From: Macrostomum lignano
Taxonomy: Eukaryota
Direction of reading: 5' to 3'
Length of the DNA stretch: 64,000 nt
Assembly (NCBI GenBank): GCA_002269645.1
Contig: NIVC01001166.1
Coordinates: 62,001-126,000 of the forward strand
The position numbers were made by a program, and so were the translations under genes. The notes under the pieces were generated by a model that had not been told where the DNA came from, ran no database searches, and saw only the letters and a list, made by a program, of their open reading frames with translations. Shown here piece after piece: positions 438 to 64,000 of the stretch; the first letter of the stretch is position 1, and the number at the start of each line of letters is the position of its first letter.

Positions 438-849
438 TCAGTCAATCTCCATACGCTCCCTCAGGGCTGTCTCGTACGCGGCCTCTTCCTCCACGCTCTC
501 GAAGCAGTAGTCGGATGACTGGCAATGTGGAAATTATAACAGTCAATGTAGATAGAATATATGCAAGGTATATGATTAGATGAGTTGTGTATATAATGTA
601 ATATCTTACCAAATCTAAATCGTCCTCCAGCCGCCACAGACGTAGAGACGCTGTATAGCGCACCAACGAAAGGTGCTCCTCCCAGTTGGAGGGCCATGCG
701 GCGGGCTCATCCCACGCAGTTGGCCGTGCTCCCGGACCGGCCAGGTACGCCTCCGAGTCGGGGGCATACGAATTGCGCCCCATCAACCAGTCCTGGTGCA
801 GAGTCTCAGCCTCCAGCACCTCCCGTAGGCCGGCACCCCTCGCAACCAA
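438..849 (-). CDS. Small acidic/Trp-rich orphan protein, spliced (exons ~849 or ATG 783..610 and 518..438)
   Basis: The ORF reaches TTG|GTAAGA (donor 609). An AT-rich intron ends gccag| at 519. The in-frame second exon reads SSDYCFESVEEEAAYETALRERMEID* (TGA 440-438). Start codon uncertain. Confidence 0.55.
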
Positions 850-888
850 AGTATCAAGAACCCGATTAAAGGCTCTGACAAAGGTGGC

Positions 889-1455
889 TTAGGAAGGCAG
901 CCCGCCTGGGTGGCGAGACCTCAACCAGTCAATGTCCCCGCGGAAAAATGAGGCCACAATGCGGGGAAAGCGCTCACGAACCACGGCGATCTCCTCAGAC
1001 ATATCCTCGTCCTCGTCGTCGTCGAAGAGAAGGAGCGTAGTGGCTGATGATATTGAGGCCCGGTGGGAGGTAGTTGAAGCAGCAGCAGAGACGGGCGTAG
1101 TAGAGGCGGCAGCAGCAGAGACGGGCGCAGCAGAGGCAGGGCCGGTTGTGGTCAGCTCCTCAACAGAGACGTCAAAGAGGGCGGCTGAGGCGGTAGTCAA
1201 ATCGGAGGCAGTAGCAGCAGGGGCACCGTTCACAACCCCGCCGATAGCCAGCAGCGGGAGGTCAAAAACTTCAGACTCGGTGTCGCTATCATAGGACATA
1301 GCCCAAGCTAGATATTGATCAGCCTCCCAATTATCACTTCCGTTGTTTTCAGTGCCTAGGGGAACTATGTGTTCTGGGATATCCCCGTCGAGGCTGGTTA
1401 ACTCTTCAGTCGGGCGATTATTATCCCAGAGGTTGGATAGAGCTCGGCGGGACAT
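889..1455 (-). CDS. Acidic, Ala/Thr-rich low-complexity orphan protein (188 aa) of the element
   Basis: ATG-initiated 188-aa ORF with its own upstream TATATAA (1533-1527). No recognisable family motif. Confidence 0.6.
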   Translation of the reverse strand: MSRRALSNLWDNNRPTEELTSLDGDIPEHIVPLGTENNGSDNWEADQYLAWAMSYDSDTESEVFDLPLLAIGGVVNGAPAATASDLTTASAALFDVSVEELTTTGPASAAPVSAAAASTTPVSAAASTTSHRASISSATTLLLFDDDEDEDMSEEIAVVRERFPRIVASFFRGDIDWLRSRHPGGLPS

Positions 1456-1569: not shown

Positions 1570-2103
1570 CTAGCAGTCCCAACCCTCGTTAAACAGATTT
1601 TCCCAGGGTGGAGATTGGTAGGGTTTGAGACCCACGAGCTGAAGAACATCCACCTCAGTCCCTGCTACCGGAGGCGTGTCTGTCTTGACTCGCTTGGCTG
1701 GAGGGGGTGCCTCAGGTGCCGGCTTGAAGAGCTTGTCCAAACGGGAGGCAAACATCCTGCGCCACAGTTCAGGCGTGAATTCGATCGTGTAGCGCCAATT
1801 AAACTTTGGGTCCTGATTGAGCCAATTGCGCAGCAAACGGATCCTCCCTCGCGAAGCTTCAACTGCCTTGAAATTGCCCAACAGGACCCGCTTGTTCACG
1901 TGAAGGCGGGCAGCAGCCTCCAGGTCAGGGCGCGCAGCTTCGAGCTTCTTCCACTCTGGCTCGCTCAAGTAGATTGCAGGGAAGCCGTCCTTCCACACTC
2001 CGGCCTCGTTGGTGTAGAGACGCCGAATTTCAATCAAGTTGTGTTCAGTTTCAAATGTGGGCTTCCGCGCCACAAAGTTTTCGTATAGAGAGATAGAAGA
2101 CAT
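1570..2103 (-). CDS. Tandem PC4-like ssDNA-binding protein (177 aa) with NLS-like PPAKRVK
   Basis: IEIRRLYTNEAGVWKDGFPAIYLSEPEWKKL follows the PC4 pattern (IDIRxY..G...PGKKGISL...W..L). A second diverged copy reads IRLLRNWLNQDPKFNWRYTIEFTPELWRRM. Confidence 0.7.
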   Translation of the reverse strand: MSSISLYENFVARKPTFETEHNLIEIRRLYTNEAGVWKDGFPAIYLSEPEWKKLEAARPDLEAAARLHVNKRVLLGNFKAVEASRGRIRLLRNWLNQDPKFNWRYTIEFTPELWRRMFASRLDKLFKPAPEAPPPAKRVKTDTPPVAGTEVDVLQLVGLKPYQSPPWENLFNEGWDC

Positions 2104-2349: not shown

Positions 2350-5300
2350 ATGGCTAAACGCAGCGCCACCGCAACTGCTTTTCTGGCTGACAAGAGGCAA
2401 CGTCTTTATGGTAAGTTTTAATTAATTTCTGTCTAGACTGTAGTTGCTAGGGTGGGGGTAGGGGCTGAGCAGCAGCAGCAGCTGCAGGGTCTGTGGGACC
2501 GCAGAGTAAACAACAAAGACTGCTGCGACAGCTGCAGGGGTCTAGACTGGAGTTGCTAGGGTGGGGTGCTGCGGCAGGGTCTGAACAGAGAGTTGCAGGG
2601 GAGGGCTAGACAAGTTTCAGCCGGGTGTGTGCTGATAAGAAATTGCTGCTAGGGGGGTGTTGTCCAGACAGGCTGCAGCTGGGGTGCAAATTGCTGCGAC
2701 AGAGAGTTGCAGGGGTGAGTAAACAAAGACTGGGGTGGGGTGTTGTCTAGACAGGGAGGGGTGTGCTGATAAGAAATTGCTGCAAAAACAGACAGTTGCT
2801 AGGGTGCTGCGGCAGATAAGAAATTGCTGCAGAATCGTTGGGGCAGGCTAGACAAGTTACAGCCAGGTGGGGGCAGAGAGTTGCTGGGACAGACTGGGGC
2901 TGCAGATAGGGCGCTACCCAGACAGGCTGCAGCTGGGGTGCAAATTGCTGCGACAGAGAGTTGCAGGGGTGAGTAAACAAAGACTGCTGCGACAGGCTGC
3001 AGCGGGGGTGCAGATAAGAAATTGCAGAGAGTTGCTGCGGGGACAGCAGAGTAAACTCTGTTAAGAAATTGCTGGGGCTAGGGCGGGGAAACACGCTGGG
3101 GCAGGAAAATGACAGATTCTTCTGGTTTTTTATCTCCTTGTGTTTTTTCAGACGCGTTTGTCCCGCCAACACAGCCGGAATCTGTTACCGGACCGGGTGA
3201 GTTATCCCGCCCCCCATTTCCCACACAGACCCGGGCTGACTCACACTCCCCCATTCCCCCATGCAGGTTTTACGGCCCGGCTGGATAATCAGCGTGACCT
3301 GCCCAAGTTTAGGGCAAAGGGTGTCGAGTATGTGGTGCGTATTACCAACACCGAAGATTTGCGGGAGGTGTTTGCCGACATGCTCGAAGTTTTCAAGCAA
3401 GATTTGGCCGGCGAGGATTTCATGGCTGCGAAATTCGAGAGCGACAATATGCTCAAAGCAGCCCATACTCCCCCGGTGCGTGCAGCCCGCATGACGGCTG
3501 AATTGTTGTTTAAGCACATTGACAAGATTGTGCAGTCGGATGCCACTGTATTGTCAGGCAACTTTTCTGTCCGTCTGCTAAAGGCCTGGGTGCCTCGAGG
3601 TGGATGTGCTCTCGAGAACAAGCATCTAGAAGAGCGGCATGCCTTCTCCAGGCACTATGTCCGCATCACCAACTCGGACAAGAGATGCCTGCTGCGCGCT
3701 CTGGTCGTGGCCTGCGCCTACCTGCAATTCGTGGCCAAGTCCATCACCAAGCAGGTGTGGCACACAATCAAGGCCAATTCGCCCACGCAGACTAAGCTGG
3801 TGGCTGAGCTACAAATCGAAGCGGGTCTCTACTCGGTAAGTTTCTAGTATTTTTCCGATAAGAATTTTTACACAGTATCATGGAATACTAAAATTTTCTG
3901 ATAAGAATTTTTACGATAAGGAATACTAAAAGAATTTTTACACAGTATCATGGAGTACTAAAAGATATATTTTCTGATAAGATTTTTACACAGTATCATG
4001 GAATACTAAAATTTTCTGATAAGAAATTTTACGATAAGGAATACTAAAAGAAATATTTTACCCTCCACACAGACTCTTCAAACCGTCTCGCAGGCTGGTC
4101 CTTTCGGCGTGGATGCACTGCCCGAAGCGATCCGTGCCCTGAACCGGCTGCATCCGGGGCGCGATTTTGGTGTACGCGTGTACCGCGCAGAGGAGGCCAA
4201 CAGGTGCATCTTCAACCTGCCTGGCACCGAGATTCTGCACCTACACCTGGTCGAGCAGCACTTTAATGTGGTTACCAAGCTGCCTGCGTTTTTCGGCAGC
4301 CACCACTACTGCCCCAAGTGCGAGATGGCCTATGATAGCGAACCCGCCAAGCACAAGTGCGCTGATGCCTGCAGTACATGCAAGACTCCGGGCTCCAACT
4401 GTAAGGCAAACCGCGCATATGTAAGATGCCATGATTGCGGGCTAAATTGCTATAATGCTCAGTGCCTAGAAAATCACAAGCGCAAGAATAAGGCCGGCAG
4501 ATCGCGCTGTGATTCGGTCCACGTTTGCGGCACGTGTGGCTATCTAGAAGAACTAAAAGTAGGCCAGCCCCCTGAGCATCAGTGTGGTTATGCCAAGTGC
4601 CCAGTCTGCAAGCAGTACGACGAAACTGCCACCCACGAGTGCTTTGTCACCCCGCCAAAAGCCAAAGAGTCTAGCGCCCCGTATGTTTACAGTACTATGA
4701 TTTCGAGACGTACTTGGACTCTGGCAAGCAGCACCGGGTACACTTGGTTACGGCTGCCACCTCCTGCGAGGCGTGTCCCAAACTCTTCCCCAGGCCCCGC
4801 TGCAGCGCGTGCGGGGGACTACACAGCTCAGCCAATTGCATTGCGGGACGCAATCTGGCGCTGGATTTCACGAGCTGTGTCTCGCACAATGACTGTGCCT
4901 GTGGGATGCGAGAGTTTGTATCTGTCGGGCCGCACTCTATCGATGCATTTTACTGCTGGCTGACTAGTGTGTTCAAGCAGGGGGCAATTGCTATTGCGCA
5001 CAATGGCTCTGCGTATGACGCATTCCTCCTGCTCGGCGCCCTACTCAACGGACTGGCCAAGAAGAAGCCGCAAGTGATCTTCCAGAACAGCCGCCTAATG
5101 TATATGAAGTGCGACAAGATCACCTTCAAGGACAGCCTCAATTTCATCCCTATTGGTCTGGCGCAATTCCCAAAGGCGCTTGGTTTGGGCACCCAACTGA
5201 CCAAAGGAGATTTCCCGCACGTGTTTAACCAGCCTCAAAATTGGGGGTACGTCGGTCCCTACTGCTCAATTGATATGTACGGCGGGAAGAAGAATAAGCA

Positions 5301-7461
5301 GCATGACTCCATCGCCGACTGGCTGGCCAAGCAGGAGGGACAGGTGTTTAATTTCAATAAGGAGTACCTGGACTATTGCCTGCAGGACACGTTAATTTTG
5401 CGGGAAGGCTGCCTGAAATATGCCCGCCTGATTAAGGACATTTGCGGACTGGACGCATTTGTCCAATCCAACACCATTGCGGGCTTGGCCATGTCGGTAT
5501 TCACCACCAAGTTTATGGAGCCCAACACTCTTGGGGTGATTTCCCGCCGATCGGATGTACAGTCGCACAAGGCGCGGTGCTGGCTGGCACATTTAAATGC
5601 AACCGAGTTTGGCGGCCGGTTGAGGACAGCCGATTCTGGCGGCGAGGCTTTCGCCATGGGCCGTAAGGTCGACGGCTTCGACCCAGAGACCAGGACAGTG
5701 CTGCAGTTTCATGGCTGTTTCTTCCATGGCTGTCCCAAGTGCTTCCCCAACGGCGACGTGCTGCACCCGCTCAAGAACCAGCCAATGCGGGCAATTTATG
5801 AAGAGACCGAGCGCTTCACCCGGCTGCTCTCCACTGCATACAATGTGCGTGTTCTGTGGGAGCACGACTATCAGGACGAGGGAGCGCCAGTCCAGCAGCC
5901 TATTCGCCTGGAGGAAGCCCTGTTTGGCGGCCGTACCGAGGCTTTTGTCCCGCACGCCGAGGCCACCGAGACTGTAGAGCTGCGCTATCGGGATGTGGTA
6001 AGTTTGTACACTTGTACACACAGTTGACATGCGTTTGAGTTTATCTTATCCTCTAATTCTCTATTATCCTTATACTTATCCCCTAGGTGTCGCTCTACCC
6101 GACTGTCAACAAGTTTGACAAGTACCCTGTCGGGCACCCTGTACACCACCCCGAGCCTCATCTACTGGATGAGCTGCAGCTGGCCCGGTATTTTGGCATC
6201 GCCGAGGTGTCAATTCTGCCGCCAACCAATCTCCACATCCCGCTACTGCCCGCCAAGATTAACAAGAAGTTGGTTTTCGGCCTCTGCCGCGTCTGCATGG
6301 AGACCCAGTGCAGCAGCGAGTGTACACACACTGACGCTGAGAGAATGCTCCGCGGCACGTGGTCGACCCCAGAGCTCCACAAAGCCCTGCAGTTGGGTTA
6401 CAAGCTGCAGTCAGTTCATGCCCTGGCCTATTGGACCGAGACTCGCACGGGTCTGTTTGCAGATTATGTAAACACTTTTTTGAAGCTCAAAGCCGAGTCT
6501 AGCGGTTCGCCGGGGATGGCTGAGGACGCCAAGGCTGCCTACATGGCCAGCTTTTTCGAGCGCGAAGGCGTCCGGCTGGAAAAGGTGGAGGAGAATCCTG
6601 GCTTGCGCTTTGTGGCCAAGATTTTTCTAAACTCGTAAGTTTTTTCTACTTGCAGTGGGGGCCGTGTTTTTCTACTTACAAAAAAAAATTTATTTTTCCC
6701 TGCAGGCTCTGGGGCAAATTCTGCCAGCGCGACGACCTGACCTCCACAGAGATTGTGGACAGCTACGAGGCGTGGCTGCAGCGCCTGACCGACCCCTCGA
6801 TCAAGGTCAAGTCGTGCGAGCCAATTGGGGAGAGCTTCATGATGCTCGAGTACAAGCCCCGATTTGGCGGTGCTGGCGAGCGGGCGTTCAAGTACGCTAA
6901 TGTACCTATTGGCGTTTTCACCACCTCCCACGCCCGGCTGCGACTCTACGAGGCTCTGGAGGGCCTAGGAACCCGAGTCATTTACGCCGATACCGATTCG
7001 TAAGTAATTTTTTCACTGTCTCTGTCTCTCTTTCTCCCCTTAACACTTTATTCTCCTCCTTCTCCCAGGGTTGTATACCGCTGCTCCCCGGGCGAGTACG
7101 AGCCTCCGGGCGGTTCGAGTTTGGGGCAGTGGACTGACGAGGTACCTGCTGGCTGCCGCATGGTACAGTTCACCACGGGAGGCCCCAAGCTCTACCGGTA
7201 CTTAGTGGAGAAGCCCGACGGGTCGCTGTACTCGGTGCTCAAGTGCAAGGGCATCAGAGTCACCCCGAGATTTCCGAGCGCGAGGACGAGCTGCAGGAAA
7301 TTCTGCGTCACGGCGGGACTGTACGCCTGCCCCAGGCCCAGTTCAGGCGCGATAAGGCTAGCTGTACAATCCGGACCCTCGAGATGGACAAGACTTTCCA
7401 GCGCGTAATGACTAAGAGGGTGTATGGGGCTGCTAGCCGCCCGTATGGCTTTCGGGAGTGA
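2350..7461 (+). CDS. polB: Protein-primed family B DNA polymerase (pPolB), 7 exons: 2350-2410, 3152-3196, 3267-3835, 4073-5997, 6087-6634, 6706-6999, 7069-7461; two +1 frame corrections needed at CCCC runs 4677-4680 and 7263-7266; ~1278 aa
   Basis: Motifs: ExoI YYDFET, ExoII IAHNGSAYD, FKDSLNFIP, KGDFPH, ExoIII YCLQD, FGGRTE, motif A DV|VSLYP, motif B KIFLNS|LWGKF, motif C YADTDS|V, GGPKLY, KCKGI and C-terminal KR...PYGF. All six introns are GT(A/G)AGT...YAG with matching phases. Exons 1-2 are less certain than the rest. Confidence 0.93.
2411..3151 (+). repeat. pPolB intron 1 filled with degenerate gctgc/ctagacag repeats, including a 69-bp duplication (2664-2732 = 2918-2986)
   Basis: Direct reading of the sequence. 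Confidence 0.75.
3850..4052 (+). repeat. AT-rich ~80-bp duplication inside pPolB intron 3
   Basis: gataagaatttttacacagtatcatggaatactaaaattttctgataagaa...gaatactaaaagaa occurs at ~3852-3933 and ~3971-4052. Confidence 0.8.
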
Positions 7462-7929
7462 GTGAAAGATAAGGATCTGTCTTTTTACGCCTCCCTGCCT
7501 GGGATTCCCCTATGTGCCCACTTGGGATCCCTTGACTCGTGGGGATGAAAATGGTTTTACACCCGCATTGTACTTGGGCCTCGCAACACACGGGGGGATC
7601 CCTCAACTTGGAGAGCTACCCTCTGGGGATCCACTAAAGCCCCGTGGGAGGTGCTGTAAAGTTTGACTGGAATTCTCTTTGTATGCGGTCTGTTACTCTA
7701 CCTCCACTGTACATTGGGGCATCATTTGACACCCCGGAGCGCACTGTGCATTGGGGGGCGGGATTCCTTCATCATTTGACACCCGGGAGCGCACTGTACT
7801 TGGGATCCCCTTGAAAAAACCTTATTTGGGGCTTGGGGAGGAATGGAATTTCTCTCTGCCCGCACTGTACTGAGGATCCCCCGGCCCTGGCTCTGGGGGC
7901 GTGTCTCGAATATCCTGGGCTAGATATTT

Positions 7930-8350
7930 TACTTTGCACCTACATTATATGCTTAATTTTGCATACATATGTTGTATTATACTTAACTTCCAGTGTGTGT
8001 ATTTTATCCTATGCACTGAAATTTGTACCTGCGGGTTATTATGCAAAAATGTATCGTTTAAAATGCGCCTACATTATATGCTATGTAATTTTCTTGTATT
8101 ATACTCAATTTGCACCTACATTGTGTGTATGTATGCACCTACATAATTGGAATCTAGAGTGTGTGCAATATACTGTGTGTATTTCCACCTATGTAGCGCC
8201 TACAGTACCTGCTTTGTCTATTTCTGCCCATGCACCTACATTGTGTGTTTTTGCTGCTCATATGCTCCAATATGTATTATGCGTCATTATTCACACCTAC
8301 CAATATGTTTTATCTACTTTTTATGTAAATATACGCAATTTCATCTACTA
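7930..8350 (+). repeat. AT-rich subterminal tract with iterated TGCACCTAC motifs
   Basis: Multiple tgcacctaca/ccacctat/acacctac copies. Confidence 0.6.
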
Positions 8351-8384
8351 TAAGTAGTTTTCACTAGCCTAATATCGCTGACTA

Positions 8385-8730
8385 GATATCTTACATATCG
8401 GGAGAGTGGTAGAGTGTACATATCGCGAGAGTGTACACTCGGGGTGCCTGCGGCTCGGTAGAGTGTACACTCGGGGTGCCTGCGGCTCGGTAGAGTGTAC
8501 ACTCGGGGTGCCTGCGGCATGGGCGCCTGCAGCATGGGCGCCTGCTGCTCTGGAGGGCATACATATCGGGAGGGTGGGCATACATATCGGGGTACATATC
8601 GGGAGGGTGGGCATACATATCGGGAGGGAGGGCATACATATCGGGGTACATATCGGGAGGGTGCGCCTGCGGCATGGGCGCCTAATTGGCGCCTGGATAG
8701 CGCCACGCGCCTGCGGCGCGCGCGCCAGCC
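8385..8730 (+). repeat. GC-rich terminal repeats with palindromes
   Basis: gtagagtgtacactcggggtgcctgcggc occurs about 3 times and contains the perfect 12-bp palindrome GAGTGTACACTC. tacatatcgggaggg occurs about 5 times; there are also GGCGCC and GCGCGCGC clusters. Confidence 0.75.
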
Positions 8731-8799
8731 AATGAGAGGCGAGGAGGGTTGACACCCACCCCACCTCCAAAAAGGGCGGATCTACCAGTCCTTAGTAGT

Positions 8800-9670
8800 C
8801 ATGGCAGATATCAGTCAGTAGACAGGGCAGATATCAGTCAGCAGACATGGCAGATATCAGCCAGTAGACAGGGCAGATATCAGCCAGTAGACAGGGCAGA
8901 TATCAGTCAGTAGACAGGGCAGATATCAGCCAGTAGACAGGGCAGATATCAGCCAGTAGACATGGCAGATATCAGCCAGTAGACAGGGCAGATATCAGCC
9001 AGTAGACATGGCAGATATCAGCCAGTAGACATGGCAGATGTCAGTCAGTAGACAGGGCAGATATCAGTCAGCAGACAGGGCAGATATCAGCCAGTAGACA
9101 TGGCAGATATCAGCCAGTAGACAGGGCAGATATCAGCCAGTAGACAGGGCAGATATCAGCCAGTAGACATGGCAGATATCAGCCAGTAGACAGGGCAGAT
9201 GTCAGTCAGTAGACAGGGCAGATATCAGTCAGCAGACAGGGCAGATATCAGCCAGTAGACATGGCAGATATCAGTCAGTAGACAGGGCAGATATCAGTCA
9301 GTAGACAGGGCAGATATCAGCCAGTAGACAGGGCAGATATCAGTCAGCAGACAGGGCAGATATCAGCCAGTAGACATGGCAGATATCAGCCAGTAGACAG
9401 GGCAGATATCAGCCAGTAGACAGGGCAGATATCAGCCAGTAGACATGGCAGATATCAGCCAGTAGACAGGGCAGATATCAGCCAGTAGACAGGGCAGATA
9501 TCAGCCAGTAGACATGGCAGATATCAGCCAGTAGACAGGGCAGATGTCAGTCAGTAGACAGGGCAGATATCAGCCAGTAGACAGGGCAGATATCAGCCAG
9601 CAGACAGGGCAGATATCAGCCAGCAGACAGGGCAGATATCAGTCAGCAGACAGGGCAGATATCAGTCAGC
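8800..9670 (+). repeat. 23-bp tandem repeat (acagggcagatatcagccagtag) in TCHP intron
   Basis: About 37 near-identical units. Confidence 0.95.
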
Positions 9671-9710: not shown

Positions 9711-12341
9711 CATGAACGCATTCCGGGCCGACAAGGACAAAGAGGCCAGGCAGCGCAAGCTGGAGCAGCGGCGCCTGCGGCTGGCTCGCCTGCTGGAGGC
9801 TGAACGGAAATACTTCCAGGTGAGATGGCGCTTCTTACTGGGCCTACTTCCAGTTGCACCTAACAGGTTTCAATCTAGATTCTGTATGTATAGACGCTCT
9901 TGAATAGCATACATCTTTTATAGGTCATTCTCTAATTGAATATTCTTTGTGACCTTTCTTGACATCCGACCGATCCTGTAATGCATTCTCTTTGATTCTC
10001 TTCTTTCTCTTGGGGGCTTGCGCTTGCTTGAATTTGGCGAAAGCATTTTACTATCATGTTCCTCTGTTCAAATACTGGTTCTGGTTCTGGTTCTGGAATG
10101 AGTGTGTCAATATCTGAGGGTGTCAGTATCTGAGGGTGTCAGTATCTGGGAGTGCCAGTATCTGAGGGTGTCAGTATCTGAGGGTGTCAGTATCTGAGGG
10201 TGTCAGTATCTGAGGGTGCCAGTATCTGAGGGTGTCAGTATCTGAGGGTGTCAGTATCTGAGGGTGTCAGTATCTGGGAGTGCCAGTATCTGAGGGTGTC
10301 AGTATCTGGGAGTGCCAGTATCTGAGGGTGTCAGTATCTGAGGGTGTCAGTATCTGAGGATGTCAGTATCCGAGGGTGTCAGTATCTGGGAGTGCCAGTA
10401 TCTGAGGGTGTCAGTATCTGAGGGTGTCAGTATCTGAGGGTGTCAGTATCTGAGGGTGTCAGTATCTGAGGGTGTCAGTATCTGAGGGTGTCAGTATCTG
10501 AGGGTGTCAGTATCTGAGGGTGTCAGTATCTGAGGGTGTCAGTATCTGAGGGTGTCAGTATCTGGGAGTGCCAGTATCTGAGGATGTCAGTATCTGAGGG
10601 TGTCAGTATCTGGGAGTGCCAGTATCTGAGGGTGTCAGTATCTGAGGGTGTCAGTATCTGAGGGTGTCAGTATCTGGGAGTGCCAGTATCTGAGGGTGTC
10701 AGTATCTGAGGGTGTCAGTATCTGAGGGTGTCAGTATCTGGGAGTGCCAGTATCTGAGGGTGTCAGTATCTGGGAGTGCCAGTATCTGAGGGTGTCAGTA
10801 TCTGAGAGTGTCAGTATCTGAAGGTGTCGGTATCTGAAGGTTTCAGTATCTGAGGATGTCAGTATCTGAGGATGTCAGTATCTGAGGATGTCAGTATCTG
10901 AGGATGTCAGTATCTGAGGATGTCAGTATCTGAGGATGTCAGTATCTGAGGATGTCATTATCTGAAGGTGTCAGTATCTGAGGGTGTCAGTATCTGGGAG
11001 TGCCAGTATCTCAGAGTTTCAGTATCTGAGGATGTCAGTATCTGAGGACGTCAGTATCTGAGACTGTCAGCATCTAATGTTGTCGAACCCGCGGCCCCGC
11101 AGGCGGAGGTGGAGACGCTGAGCCTGGAGAACTCTGGGCGGCTGGACACCATGCGAGATCGAATCGACTCGCTGCGCAGCGCCCGAGAGCAGGTCCGCTC
11201 GGAGGAAGCCGAGCGGCTGCAGTACGAGCACTTCAGGCAGAACAATCCCCGGCTGAGGGAGGTGGCCGCCGAGCTCGCCCGCGAGGAGGCGGTGGAAGGC
11301 TGGTCCGACCAGGTGGCGGAGCGCCAAGAGGTCGCCGCCGCCGAGCGTCGCGAGTCGGACGCGTGGGCGGAGGCGGGCCGCCGGCAGGCTCTGGAAGCGG
11401 AGCTGCGCGCCCGAACCGAGGAGGCGGACCGACTCGAGGCCGAGCTGAAGCGCCGGCGCGAGCTCGAGGCCCAGATGGCGGCAATCCGTCGCCGGGCGGC
11501 CGAACAGGAACGGCTGGCGGCCGAGGAGCGGCGGCTGGCGGAGGAGCTGGACCGCGTGGCCGCGCTGGACAGCCGGCGCCGGGCGGCCGAGGAGCAGCGG
11601 CGGAAATCCGAGCACGGCCGGGCGCTGCTCCGGCAGCACAAGTCCGCCCTGGCCAGGAAGTCGCAGCAGGTGCAGGCCGACCTGCGCGAAGATTTGAAGC
11701 TGCTGGCCGCGCTTGAGGAGCGCGAGGCCGACGAGCGGCAGGCGGCCACGGAGCGGCGCGACCGGCAGCGCCAGGAGGCGGTCGGGGCGCGCCAGCTGGT
11801 GGAGGAGCAGCTGCGCCGGGAGCGCGCCAGGGAGGCCGAGCTCGATGCGCTGTTCGCCGACGAGGCCGCGCGAGAATGGGACCGGCGCCAGGCCGAGTGG
11901 CAGCGCGAGGCGGAGGCGCGGGCGCGCCTGCTATCGGAGGTGCTGGCCGAGCGGGAGAGCCAAGTGGAGCGGCAGCTGCAGGCGGCCAGGCAGGCCCAGG
12001 CGGAGAATCTCCGCGAGCGCGAGGAGCTGCTCCGCGACGTCGAGGAGGCGGCTGCGGCCACGGCGCGGGCGGAGGCGGATGAGGCGGAGGCGGCAGCGGC
12101 CAGGCGGGCGGAGCTGGACGAGCAGCGGCGGGAGCGCGCGGCAGTGGAGGCGGCGGAGCGGCTGCGCCGGCAGGCCGAGCTGAGCGAGGAGCGGCAAGCC
12201 AAGGAGGCCTACGAGCGCCTGCTGGCTGATGAGGCCGAGAGGCTGCGCGGCGAACGGGCAACGGCGCGGCAGCAGGCGGCGTTGAGCGCCAGGCAGCCGC
12301 CGACTGCGCGCCAGATTGTGCGCGGAGAGCGGCGCTTCTGA
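9711..12341 (+). CDS. TCHP: Trichoplein keratin filament-binding / ciliary coiled-coil protein, 3' exons 9711-9819 and 11103-12341; 5' exon(s) not in window
   Basis: SMNAFRADKDKEARQRKLEQRRLRLARLL, LQYEHFRQNNPRLREV and ERAREAELDALFADEAAREWDRRQAEWQREAEARARLLSEVL match recalled trichoplein segments. Splice sites attcag|, cag|GTGAGA and ccgcag| are in phase. Confidence 0.85.
10110..11065 (+). repeat. 16-bp tandem repeat (gtcagtatctgagggt) in TCHP intron
   Basis: Direct reading of the sequence. Confidence 0.95.
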
Positions 12342-59142: not shown

Positions 59143-62100
59143 CTATTGGTCCAAATTGGCCTTGGAAATGTTCGAGTCACCAAACCGATTCTCAATGACC
59201 TGAAACGATGAGTTAATATTTTGTAGACAGTTCTCATCCGCCGACAGCAAGCGGCTTCTATCAGATAGCACCTGGAAAACTGCTGCGTCCGCACGCCGAA
59301 CTTGAGCAGCCAAGTAATCCAGCATGTCGGCCGCGTCACCAGACTGCAGGTTCCGCATCGACCTAGAATCTAGCTCAACAAACTCCTCCAACGGCGAAAC
59401 CAAAGATGATGGTACACCAATACCAGATGAAGGCATTGAATATCCGTCAAGAGTGGACAATGCCGAAACACCATCATAAAGCTCCGGACTAGGACTTGCA
59501 ATGCCCTGCGAATACCGAGGACTAGACAAAGGGACCGGAAAAAGTGTCGACGCCGATTTCCGCTCCGAATCAATATCCTCCTCTTCTACTAGAGCTGAAG
59601 CAGCGCCTCTCTCATCTACGCGACGTCTGTACTCGCCCAGCTCCGAGTCGAGTCGCTGCAGCACTACTCGCGTCGCATCTGGCTGCAGCGCCGCTCGCGA
59701 CTGCTCGACCGAGGTCACGACCGAGTTGTCGAACGGGCCTCCGATGCTTCTAAGCCGCGACAGTCGATCCGCCATCAGTCTGGCCACTTCCTCGTTCATT
59801 GACCTGTCTGGCTGCGCCTGTTGTTCTACTACTGCTGCGTCGTCCGGTATCACCTGCGTTTCCTCTTTCTCGTCCTCTGCTAAAGCGGCCGCCGTGGCGC
59901 CTCTCTCGTCTACGCGACGTCTGTACTCGCCCAGCTCCGAGTCGAGTCGCTGCAGCGCTACTCGCGTCGCATCTGGCTGCAGCGCCGCTCGCGACTGCTC
60001 GACCGAGGTCACGACCGAGTTGTCGAACGGGCCTCCGATGCTTCTAAGCCGCGACAGTCGATCCGCCATCAGTCTGGCCACTTCCTCGTTCATTGACCTG
60101 TCTGGCTGCGCCTGTTGTTCTACTACTGCTGCGTCGTCCGGTATCACCTGCGTTTCCTCTTTCTCGTCCTCTGCTAAAGCGGCCGCCGTGGCGCCTCTCT
60201 CGTCTACGCGACGTCTGTACTCGCCCAGCTCCGAGTCGAGTCGCTGCAGCGCTACTCGCGTCGCATCTGGCTGCAGCGCCGCTCGCGACTGCTCGACCGA
60301 GGTCACGACCGAGTTGTCGAACGGGCCTCCGATGCTTCTAAGCCGCGACAGTCGATCCGCCATCAGTCTGGCCACTTCCTCGTTCATTGACCTGTCTGGC
60401 TGCGCCTGTTGTTCTACTACTGCTGCGTCGTCCGGTATCACCTGCGTTTCCTCTTTCTCGTCCTCTGCTAAAGCGGCCGCCGTGGCGCCTCTCTCGTCTA
60501 CGCGACGTCTGTACTCGCCCAGCTCGAGTCGAGTCGCTGCAGCACTACTCGCGTCGCATCTGGCTGCAGCGCCGCTCGCGACTGCTCGACCGAGGTCACG
60601 ACCGAGTTGTCGAACGGGCCTCCGATGCTTCTAAGCCGCGACAGTCGATCCGCCATCAGTCTGGCCACTTCCTCGTTCATTGACCTGTCTGGCTGCGCCT
60701 GTTGTTCTACTACTGCTGCGTCGTCCGGTATCACCTGCGTTTCCTCTTTCTCGTCCTCTGCTAAAGCGGCCGCCGTGGCGCCTCTCTCGTCTACGCGACG
60801 TCTGTACTCGCCCAGCTCCGAGTCGAGTCGCTGCAGCGCTACTCGCGTCGCATCTGGCTGCAGCGCCGCTCGCGACTGCTCGACCGAGGTCACGACCGAG
60901 TTGTCGAACGGGCCTCCGATGCTTCTAAGCCGCGACAGTCGATCCGCCATCAGTCTGGCCACTTCCTCGTTCATTGACCTGTCTGGCTGCGCCTGTTGTT
61001 CTACTACTGCTGCGTCGTCCGGTATCACCTGCGTTTCCTCTTTCTCGTCCTCTGCTAAAGCGGCCGCCGTGGCGCCTCTCTCGTCTACGCGACGTCTGTA
61101 CTCGCCCAGCTCCGAGTCGAGTCGCTGCAGCGCTACTCGCTCGCATCTGGCTGCAGCGCCGCTCGCGACTGCTCGACCGAGGTCACGACCGAGTTGTCGA
61201 ACGGGCCTCCGATGCTTCTAAGCCGCGACAGTCGATCCGCCATCAGTCTGGCCACTTCCTCGTTCATTGACCTGTCTGGCTGCGCCTGTTGTTCTACTAC
61301 TGCTGCGTCGTCCGGTATCACCTGCGTTTCCTCTTTCTCGTCCTCTGCTAAAGCGGCCGCCGTGGCGCCTCTCTCGTCTACGCGACGTCTGTACTCGCCC
61401 AGCTCCGAGTCGAGTCGCTGCAGCGCTACTCGCGTCGCATCTGGCTGCAGCGCCGCTCGCGACTGCTCGACCGAGGTCACGACCGAGTTGTCGAACGGGC
61501 CTCCGATGCTTCTAAGCCGCGACAGTCGATCCGCCATCAGTCTGGCCACTTCCTCGTTCATTGACCTGTCTGGCTGCGCCTGTTGTTCTACTACTGCTGC
61601 GTCGTCCGGTATCACCTGCGTTTCCTCTTTCTCGTCCTCTGCTAAAGCGGCCGCCGTGGCGCCTCTCTCGTCTACGCGACGTCTGTACTCGCCCAGCTCC
61701 GAGTCGAGTCGCTGCAGCGCTACTCGCGTCGCATCTGGCTGCAGCGCCGCTCGCGACTGCTCGACCGAGGTCACGACCGAGTTGTCGAACGGGCCTCCGA
61801 TGCTTCTAAGCCGCGACAGTCGATCCGCCATCAGTCTGGCCACTTCCTCGTTCATTGACCTGTCTGGCTGCGCCTGTTGTTCTACTACTGCTGCGTCGTC
61901 CGGTATCACCTGCGTTTCCTCTTTCTCGTCCTCTGCTAAAGCGGCCGCCGTGGCGCCTCTCTCGTCTACGCGACGTCTGTACTCGCCCAGCTCCGAGTCG
62001 AGTCGCTGCAGCGCTACTCGCGTCGCATCTGGCTGCAGCGCCGCTCGCGACTGCTCGACCGAGGTCACGACCGAGTTGTCGAACGGGCCTCCGATGCTTC

Positions 62101-64000
62101 TAAGCCGCGACAGTCGATCCGCCATCAGTCTGGCCACTTCCTCGTTCATTGACCTGTCTGGCTGCGCCTGTTGTTCTACTACTGCTGCGTCGTCCGGTAT
62201 CACCTGCGTTTCCTCTTTCTCGTCCTCTGCTAAAGCGGCCGCCGTGGCGCCTCTCTCGTCTACGCGACGTCTGTACTCGCCCAGCTCCGAGTCGAGTCGC
62301 TGCAGCGCTACTCGCGTCGCATCTGGCTGCAGCGCCGCTCGCGACTGCTCGACCGAGGTCACGACCGAGTTGTCGAACGGGCCTCCGATGCTTCTAAGCC
62401 GCGACAGTCGATCCGCCATCAGTCTGGCCACTTCCTCGTTCATTGACCTGTCTGGCTGCGCCTGTTGTTCTACTACTGCTGCGTCGTCCGGTATCACCTG
62501 CGTTTCCTCTTTCTCGTCCTCTGCTAAAGCGGCCGCCGTGGCGCCTCTCTCGTCTACGCGACGTCTGTACTCGCCCAGCTCCGAGTCGAGTCGCTGCAGC
62601 GCTACTCGCGTCGCATCTGGCTGCAGCGCCGCTCGCGACTGCTCGACCGAGGTCACGACCGAGTTGTCGAACGGGCCTCCGATGCTTCTAAGCCGCGACA
62701 GTCGATCCGCCATCAGTCTGGCCACTTCCTCGTTCATTGACCTGTCTGGCTGCGCCTGTTGTTCTACTACTGCTGCGTCGTCCGGTATCACCTGCGTTTC
62801 CTCTTTCTCGTCCTCTGCTAAAGCGGCCGCCGTGGCGCCTCTCTCGTCTACGCGACGTCTGTACTCGCCCAGCTCCGAGTCGAGTCGCTGCAGCGCTACT
62901 CGCGTCGCATCTGGCTGCAGCGCCGCTCGCGACTGCTCGACCGAGGTCACGACCGAGTTGTCGAACGGGCCTCCGATGCTTCTAAGCCGCGACAGTCGAT
63001 CCGCCATCAGTCTGGCCACTTCCTCGTTCATTGACCTGTCTGGCTGCGCCTGTTGTTCTACTACTGCTGCGTCGTCCGGTATCACCTGCGTTTCCTCTTT
63101 CTCGTCCTCTGCTAAAGCGGCCGCCGTGGCGCCTCTCTCGTCTACGCGACGTCTGTACTCGCCCAGCTCCGAGTCGAGTCGCTGCAGCACTACTCGCGTC
63201 GCATCTGGCTGCAGCGCCGCTCGCGACTGCTCGACCGAGGTCACGACCGAGTTGTCGAACGGGCCTCCGATGCTTCTAAGCCGCGACAGTCGATCCGCCA
63301 TCAGTCTGGCCACTTCCTCGTTCATTGACCTGTCTGGCTGCGCCTGTTGTTCTACTACTGCTGCGTCGTCCGGTATCACCTGCGTTTCCTCTTTCTCGTC
63401 CTCTGCTAAAGCGGCGCCGTGGCGCTCTCTCGTCTACGCGACGTCTGTACTCGCCCAGCTCCGAGTCGAGTCGCTGCAGCGCTACTCGCGTCGCATCTGG
63501 CTGCAGCGCCGCTCGCGACTGCTCGACCGAGGTCACGACCGAGTTGTCGAACGGGCCTCCGATGCTTCTAAGCCGCGACAGTCGATCCGCCATCAGTCTG
63601 GCCACTTCCTCGTTCATTGACCTGTCTGGCTGCGCCTGTTGTTCTACTACTGCTGCGTCGTCCGGTATCACCTGCGTTTCCTCTTTCTCGTCCTCTGCTA
63701 AAGCGGCCGCCGTGGCGCCTCTCTCGTCTACGCGACGTCTGTACTCGCCCAGCTCCGAGTCGAGTCGCTGCAGCGCTACTCGCGTCGCATCTGGCTGCAG
63801 CGCCGCTCGCGACTGCTCGACCGAGGTCACGACCGAGTTGTCGAAACGGGCCTCCGATGCTTCTAAGCCGCGACAGTCGATCCGCCATCAGTCTGGCCAC
63901 TTCCTCGTTCATTGACCTGTCTGGCTGCGCCTGTTGTTCTACTACTGCTGCGTCGTCCGGTATCACCTGCGTTTCCTCTTTCTCGTCCTCTGCTAAAGCG
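59143..64000 (-). CDS. Large protein built of >=15 near-identical 98-aa repeats plus a unique ~150-aa C-terminus; start outside window; interrupted by single-base indels
   Basis: The 294-bp unit is stop-free in one minus frame and reads through into the unique C-terminus (stop at 59145-59143). Breaks occur only at 1-bp indels (~60525, ~61141, ~63415-63425, ~63845). Confidence 0.65.

Follow-up and report, generated by a model that had tools for sequence, protein, structure and literature searches.

A flatworm, Macrostomum lignano, carries a Polinton-like element whose DNA polymerase gene is interrupted by a separate short intron in each of its three catalytic motifs (A, B and C). The introns are real and spliced, and very probably non-randomly placed, and the catalytic motifs are likely to be recurrent hotspots for intron gain in genes of this polymerase type (pPolB2). 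Such an arrangement is unexpected because elements of this kind are described as intron-free, and because no preference of ordinary introns for conserved positions is known. The literature searched contained no report of motif-sited introns in Polinton polymerases or of this particular element.

Architecture of the polymerase gene

The gene resides near the start of the stretch of DNA that was analysed (contig NIVC01001166.1, 64,000 nucleotides, hereafter the window) and encodes a DNA polymerase of family B that uses a protein primer (pPolB), of the pPolB2 type. The PF03175 model scores above its cut-off in exons 4 and 5, and all six motifs of the enzyme (Exo I-III and Pol A-C) were located. 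The gene is organized as follows.

2350..2410, + strand: pPolB exon 1, a mini-exon of 20 codons (start ATG inferred)
2411..3151, + strand: intron 1, 741 nt, phase 1
3152..3196, + strand: pPolB exon 2, a mini-exon of 15 codons
3197..3266, + strand: intron 2, 70 nt, phase 1
3267..3835, + strand: pPolB exon 3
3836..4072, + strand: intron 3, 237 nt, phase 0, containing a 43-bp tandem repeat
4073..5997, + strand: pPolB exon 4, with a Cys-rich region, Exo I-III, the Vsr-like insert and the start of motif A
5554..5880, + strand: Vsr-like nuclease insert (FHGCFFHGC, WE), within exon 4
5998..6086, + strand: intron A, 89 nt, phase 0, inside DxxSLYP (RDV|VSLYP)
6087..6634, + strand: pPolB exon 5, motif A to motif B
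6635..6705, + strand: intron B, 71 nt, phase 2, in the Ser TC|G codon of KxxxNSxWG (KIFLNS|LWGKF)
6706..6999, + strand: pPolB exon 6, motif B to motif C
7000..7068, + strand: intron C, 69 nt, phase 2, in the Ser TC|G codon of YxDTDS (YADTDS|VVY); retention leads to an immediate stop
7069..7461, + strand: pPolB exon 7

The first-pass annotation had described introns A, B and C, and their lengths, positions and phases, the split serine codons and the GTAAGT donors were all confirmed; each of the three introns has the form GTAAGT..YAG. However, its count of three was incomplete, as the gene holds six introns and those upstream (2411-3151, 3197-3266 and 3836-4072) had been missed. Introns 1 to 3 lie in the poorly conserved N-terminal part of the polymerase. 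The leader of two mini-exons (window 2350-3266) heads the polymerase in this element and in the sister family described below. In the present copy the polymerase frame is broken near 4690 (exon 4) and again near 7265 (exon 7).

The insert between the Exo and Pol motifs carries a VSR-type motif, and a profile comparison with Escherichia coli Vsr gives a weak match (E 0.03); a single-sequence search of the PDB returned no match for it. By this weak resemblance to Vsr, the enzyme probably groups with the VSR subgroup of pPolB2. Polintons of this subgroup from marine nematodes and molluscs share PF03175, Exo I-III, Pol A-C and, putatively, the Vsr-like insert with the Macrostomum gene (PMC10748475).

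A compact element with reversed ends

The polymerase gene belongs to a multicopy element of about 9.5 kb, of which the copy in the window has the following further features.

770 bases before the window to 8799, no strand: Polinton-like element, 9569 bp, with ends 5'-ACTACT..AGTAGT-3'
438..1455, - strand: ORF with no assigned function, with one spliced intron (about 519-610) and, in this copy, a premature stop near 890
1570..2103, - strand: PC4-like ORF, 177 aa, divergently oriented to the polymerase (PF02229 E 0.043, weak)
7854..8799, no strand: right terminal inverted repeat, about 99% match to both ends of other copies
8800..8805, + strand: 6-bp target-site duplication CATGGC; the same hexamer precedes the left end

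The PC4-like ORF matches the sister-family model P0051 with an E value of 2e-4, and an Atlas search with this region gave no usable match. The ORF at 438..1455 is missing from element variants of 8.8 kb, and both ORFs are dispensable in some copies.

At least 40 copies with 90% identity or more reside in the genome. Most element copies measure 8.5-10.5 kb, have long terminal repeats and carry the end motifs ACTACT..AGTAGT or, alternatively, ACTACGT..ACGTAGT. Among copies with matched ends, the terminal inverted repeats mostly span about 0.9-1.35 kb, within the 100-1500 bp range of Polintons (Mavericks), whereas those of the present copy match over 380 bp only (93% identity). The two repeats of this copy match different subfamilies, yet its target duplication is perfect, an observation that also involves loci L037, L047 and L048; recombination between copies may explain it. 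Of the 37 copies having both ends, all 37 are flanked by a perfect 6-bp target duplication, within the 5-8 bp expected of Polintons, where the best end pair was chosen for each copy and two pairs share a hexamer. The insertions bearing these duplications are recent. Polintons of the VSR subgroup likewise have long terminal repeats, a 6-bp target duplication and trinucleotide-repeat ends (PMC10748475).

The element departs from known Polintons in several respects. Its ends are the reverse of the canonical (AGT)2..(ACT)2 arrangement, in which AGTAGT..ACTACT is usual, and ACTACT..AGTAGT is not among the three end motifs given for Polintons in PMC10748475. At about 9.5 kb it is also smaller than the 13-25 kb Polintons described there, and no integrase, capsid, ATPase or protease gene was found (PMC10748475). 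No rve match turned up among the element ORFs scanned, and no integrase is present among the ORFs of two copies from each family; the search for capsid, ATPase and protease genes covered the same ORFs, and could have missed a strongly split or divergent gene lying in the left part of family 2. Because the replicon is Polinton-like but lacks recognizable integrase and capsid genes, we file it as a non-autonomous Polinton-derived variant. Three full-size elements resident in the same genome carry canonical AGTAGT..ACTACT ends, and the full-size resident Polintons have intronless polymerases, with integrase-like ORFs judged by eye only.

A second, sister family (family 2) shares about 55-75% amino acid identity with family 1, depending on the exon. 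Synonymous sites are saturated between the two (pS 0.73, pN 0.19). Comparison of the polymerase with 30 family-1 copies gives a pN/pS of 0.05, which shows that the gene is under purifying selection. Exons 4-7 are open in 13 of 39 family-1 copies and in 5 of 8 copies of family 2.

The genome also contains more distant relatives. The sole intronless pPolB2 gene found there is degraded, distant and AT-rich (locus L074, G000:C234:57200-59400), with capsid-like and protease-like remnants nearby as judged by eye. Loci L117, L119 and L075-L099 represent several intronless families of pPolB1 elements and Polinton-like viruses, among which, on inspection by eye, one family appears to carry dUTPase-like and kinase-like ORFs and another a TBP-like ORF. 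The comparison with pPolB1 was made with the intronless families of this genome only. As for its surroundings, the element sits within a tandem array of 23-bp units, a short way upstream of a host gene for a coiled-coil protein (window 8794-9669 and 9712-12340), which has a weak TPH-domain match below the cut-off (E 1.4e-5). The far end of the window (59603-64000) holds another tandem array, made of 15 units of 294 bp that are 99% identical and contain long open frames.

Splicing and persistence of the introns

Evidence for splicing comes from contigs of four sequencing runs, each from a different study, whose RNA status was guessed and is not on record. GT..AG joints were found for introns A and B in all four runs, for introns 2 and 3 likewise in four of four, and for intron 1 in three. 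Removal of intron C is read from length, in two contigs (X11 record 11 and X2 record 15) that join 6086-6634 to 7069 and have between them precisely the 294 letters of exon 6706-6999. These contigs are best read as RNA because no genomic copy without the introns was found: among the 48-54 located copies (55 examined), none lacks intron 3, A, B or C. Similarly, neither these copies nor 12 further loci included a processed or intronless form.

Other copies share these intron positions, both within family 1 and in the sister family. Intron lengths vary among copies, and GT..AG ends are kept in 47-53 of them. Introns A to C measure 65-144 nt across copies, with the exception of a 2.3-kb insertion that lies inside intron C of one family-2 copy (locus L109, about 6730-9000). 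The sequences of introns A, B and C in family 2 are unrelated to those of family 1, although they occupy the same positions. With their GT..AG ends, pyrimidine tracts and removal from RNA-guessed contigs, the introns have the hallmarks of U2 spliceosomal introns. No nuclease ORF of the kind that distinguishes shintrons, homing introns or inteins was found inside introns A to C (65-144 nt).

Two specific origins were considered and rejected. The introns are unrelated to each other (pairwise z -0.7 to 2.3), which speaks against an introner family as their source. Intron A begins with a stretch that reads VSLY, like the exon that follows it, as a duplication might produce. However, older subfamilies and family 2 lack the VSLY start.

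Placement of introns within the gene

If six introns were placed uniformly, the probability that three or more would fall within the six Exo and Pol motifs is 4.6e-4, and the probability of one intron in each of motifs A, B and C is 1.4e-5. A test against smoothed column conservation, using 85 outside relatives, returned a more divided answer to the proposal that the introns track conservation. All six introns taken together show no significant preference (p 0.06-0.16), whereas the last three alone do (p 0.005-0.03) in a comparison chosen post hoc. All of these placement values are post hoc in that the gene was picked from a large scan, and the single-gene statistics alone are suggestive only. 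The motif-window result nevertheless agrees with the first-pass impression of non-random placement, which is also supported by pile-ups of protein ends at motif B in outside relatives.

Protein ends near the motifs of outside relatives

Introns B and C in outside relatives were inferred from the ends of protein predictions, since gene callers that are blind to introns leave tell-tale ends. For example, two unnamed ORFs with 61-66% identity run exactly from xSLYP to KIFLNS. In a sample of 85 long relatives, selected through the upstream exon, truncation affects 23. Eight of these 23 stop at motif B, and 6 of the 8 show donor-like read-through; endings of this type at motif B include LNR*, LN-VS, SFW-V and SLW*. 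Matches to the N|S pattern that lie away from ORF ends are false and were excluded from the counts.

A second sample comprised 150 representatives of clusters formed at 50% identity, of which 97 are complete and 53 are cut short. Of the short representatives, 52 extend as far as motif B, and 12 of these terminate inside its six codons (the null maximum averages 5.4, P 5e-6); no separate six-codon window collects more than 4 ends. About four of these 12 are ambiguous, and one of them, P0122, had also served in the query; the probability of a maximum of 9 or more is 0.003. A similar but weaker pile-up of truncations occurs at motif C, where two representatives end at DT|G[KE], and approximately three others begin with foreign heads at motif A.

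The complementary signature is seen in 120 fragments that span motif B to motif C, which were recovered by a search that favours ORFs bounded near these motifs. About 24 of them start with a Phe-rich foreign head before S/R-[FL]WGK (Phe 28% versus 5% background), in 9 the foreign head precedes GKF, and 6 stop at either DT|V or DT|G[KIR]. Fragments that start further upstream mostly begin in frame. Together, the outside breaks fall at four or more positions in motif B and at two in motif C (three when the Macrostomum element is counted), and both AG|Y and TC|N split serine codons occur among the relatives.

On a tree of 224 rows, the motif-B breaks present in 25 rows require 17 changes, compared with a mean of 23.9 and a minimum of 21 after shuffling. 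Other trees give 10 changes in 197 rows and 12 in 111 rows. The breaks lie scattered over these trees, but all are short and weakly resolved and the change counts cannot tell gain from loss. From these protein ends, many distant relatives appear to carry introns in motifs B and C, with a few near motif A, and numerous separate intron gains in these motifs are likely among them.

Among the outside relatives, one intron is visible on DNA. It has GT-AG ends and splits the top-ranked conserved motif, EFYG|CVYHGC, in the full Polinton L144 (6816-6936), and thus sits at a conserved motif other than A, B or C. The split motif is the Vsr-like EFxG|CxxHGC, and this Polinton carries integrase, capsid-like, ATPase and protease genes together with a CARD-PC4 fusion. 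No motif-B intron was present at the nine distant loci with DNA over motif B. Likewise, distant loci from a metagenome scan (1), two viral scans (0 and 5) and a genome scan (6) have no intron at A, B or C; L147 and L148 duplicate L146 and were not counted. In viral contigs, searches with two junction patterns yielded no match and one unrelated match, respectively. Loci L150-L155 are Polinton polymerase contigs inside bacterial genome bins, where they are probably eukaryotic contamination.

Explanations for introns in catalytic motifs

One possible account, which we favour tentatively and at somewhat less than even confidence, is that motif introns are gained and then protected through the action of a nuclease, by analogy with inteins. 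A Polinton-borne nuclease would cut the conserved DNA of a motif, and repair would close the break with filler sequence or by copying an allele that already has an intron. The enzyme would stay active only if the insert could be spliced out precisely. The insert would also destroy the nuclease target, such that the allele would resist further cutting and spread, and the intron would stay because imprecise deletion within the motif would be lethal. The polymerase would be made from nuclear RNA spliced by the host, and the integrase might be borrowed from resident Polintons or retroelements. Two of the sites used by inteins in family B polymerases are, we assume, motifs A and B. Archaeal PolB inteins occupy three fixed active-site positions, one of which is YGD|TDS (PMC549080). 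Furthermore, pPolB2 carries an HNH or VSR nuclease and has displaced pPolB1 genes (PMC10748475), introns can spread beside free-standing nucleases by collaborative homing (PMC11296320), and break repair in Daphnia yields parallel, unrelated introns at one site (PMC4202315). Several findings stand against this account: introns A to C contain no ORF, none of the nine distant loci with DNA over motif B has an intron in it, and the six introns, taken as a set, do not significantly favour conserved columns.

A fairly unlikely alternative is that introns arise anywhere and are lost mainly by imprecise deletion, which would be tolerated in variable regions and lethal in motifs. This survivor bias needs no special enzyme, it fits the L144 intron, which also lies in an invariant motif, and precise loss was seen in no copy. 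However, ends do not accumulate in the remaining conserved stretches downstream of motif B (12 ends versus at most 4 per six codons), and both families retain three introns in the N-terminal part, which is variable. It is also unlikely that latent splice signals account for the pattern, in which case the motif codons (Asn-Ser(AGY), Trp-Gly-Lys and Thr-Asp, giving AG| or G|GTAA-like sequences) would make insertions or duplications instantly spliceable and lead to parallel gains. Many relatives indeed read LNR* (AG|GT) or DT-G-K (G|GT), intronless relatives often have AAY AGY and TGG GGT AAA, and parallel gains at one site are reported as common in Daphnia (PMC4202315), but in the Macrostomum element introns B and C split TC|G and intron A lies at TG|GT. 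The earlier suggestion that the introns were gained at proto-splice sites fails for this lineage, as MAG|G surrounds none of the six, while 34 sites of this kind in exons 3-7 are unused; for relatives with a serine codon split AG|Y, it may hold.

Descent from one or two introns of an early pPolB2 gene, which most lineages would have lost and others would have moved by a few bases, is distinctly unlikely. The phase-2 position in serine is the commonest and the break state is clumped on the tree relative to shuffles, but the multiplicity of positions in motifs B and C, the two ways of splitting the serine codon and the interleaving of intronless sisters on the tree all argue against it. These three processes could also act together. 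By contrast, we give very little credence to a regulatory gate, through which the host or germline would control replication by retaining the motif introns, as the first-pass annotation had envisaged. The enzyme would be truncated if A, B or C were retained, but any retained intron leads to a frameshift or stop wherever it is placed in the frame, and this does not explain the position. Moreover, spliced forms occur in contigs of all four studies examined, and the splice sites at both ends of the introns are canonical and strong. A chance pattern, picked out afterwards from a large scan, is just as improbable, even though the gene was selected for this very pattern and the conservation test of all six introns is not significant. 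Chance is countered by the motif test and by motif-B pile-ups in two separate protein samples, and it is the outside protein ends, not the single-gene p-values, that make it unlikely.

Precedents and implications

In their placement, these introns resemble the inteins and group I introns of family B polymerases, which likewise insert into active-site motifs (PMC549080, PMC2814812, PMC3024317). Intron C is 8 nt away from the intein site pol-c, at YGD|TDS (PMC549080), and the C introns inferred for outside relatives are 3-4 nt away from it. In contrast to those inserts, the Macrostomum introns are short and spliceosomal and lack a splicing or nuclease domain. For spliceosomal introns, PMC2814812 reports no preference for conserved sites.

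The nearest precedents are shintrons, a chlorovirus polymerase intron and dinoflagellate introners. Mirusvirus shintrons encode a nuclease inside the intron and target morphogenesis genes, whereas the Macrostomum introns are empty and reside in a polymerase (PMC12768974). The polymerase of chlorovirus PBCV-1 also carries a spliceosomal intron in a viral DNA polymerase gene, but a single one and in a giant virus (PMC7019647). Dinoflagellate Polinton-like viruses have spliceosomal introns as well, but these form repeated introner families (PMC12166617). Unlike either of the latter two cases, the Macrostomum introns are mutually unrelated and lie inside the motifs.

Intact vertebrate Mavericks are intronless (PMC8097293), in contrast to the six spliced introns of the Macrostomum element. 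Since Polintons have been described and searched for as intronless, surveys based on ORFs would take active families with introns for broken ones and overlook them. It is also apparent from the element that a unit with a polymerase but no integrase, and with reversed ends, can keep inserting.

A broader proposal, by analogy with inteins, is that animal Polintons wage nuclease conflict over their own polymerase motifs, and that spliceosomal introns are repeatedly born there and protect the same motifs that inteins occupy in archaea. We regard this as doubtful in its full form. If true, spliceosomal introns could be gained by a route directed at conserved sites, and this minimal replicon, with its polymerase alone and its reversed ends, would be an example. 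A gene family whose catalytic codons gain introns repeatedly would make the question of how and where introns are gained testable, through many independent events in one alignable gene and with RNA support in a laboratory flatworm, Macrostomum lignano.
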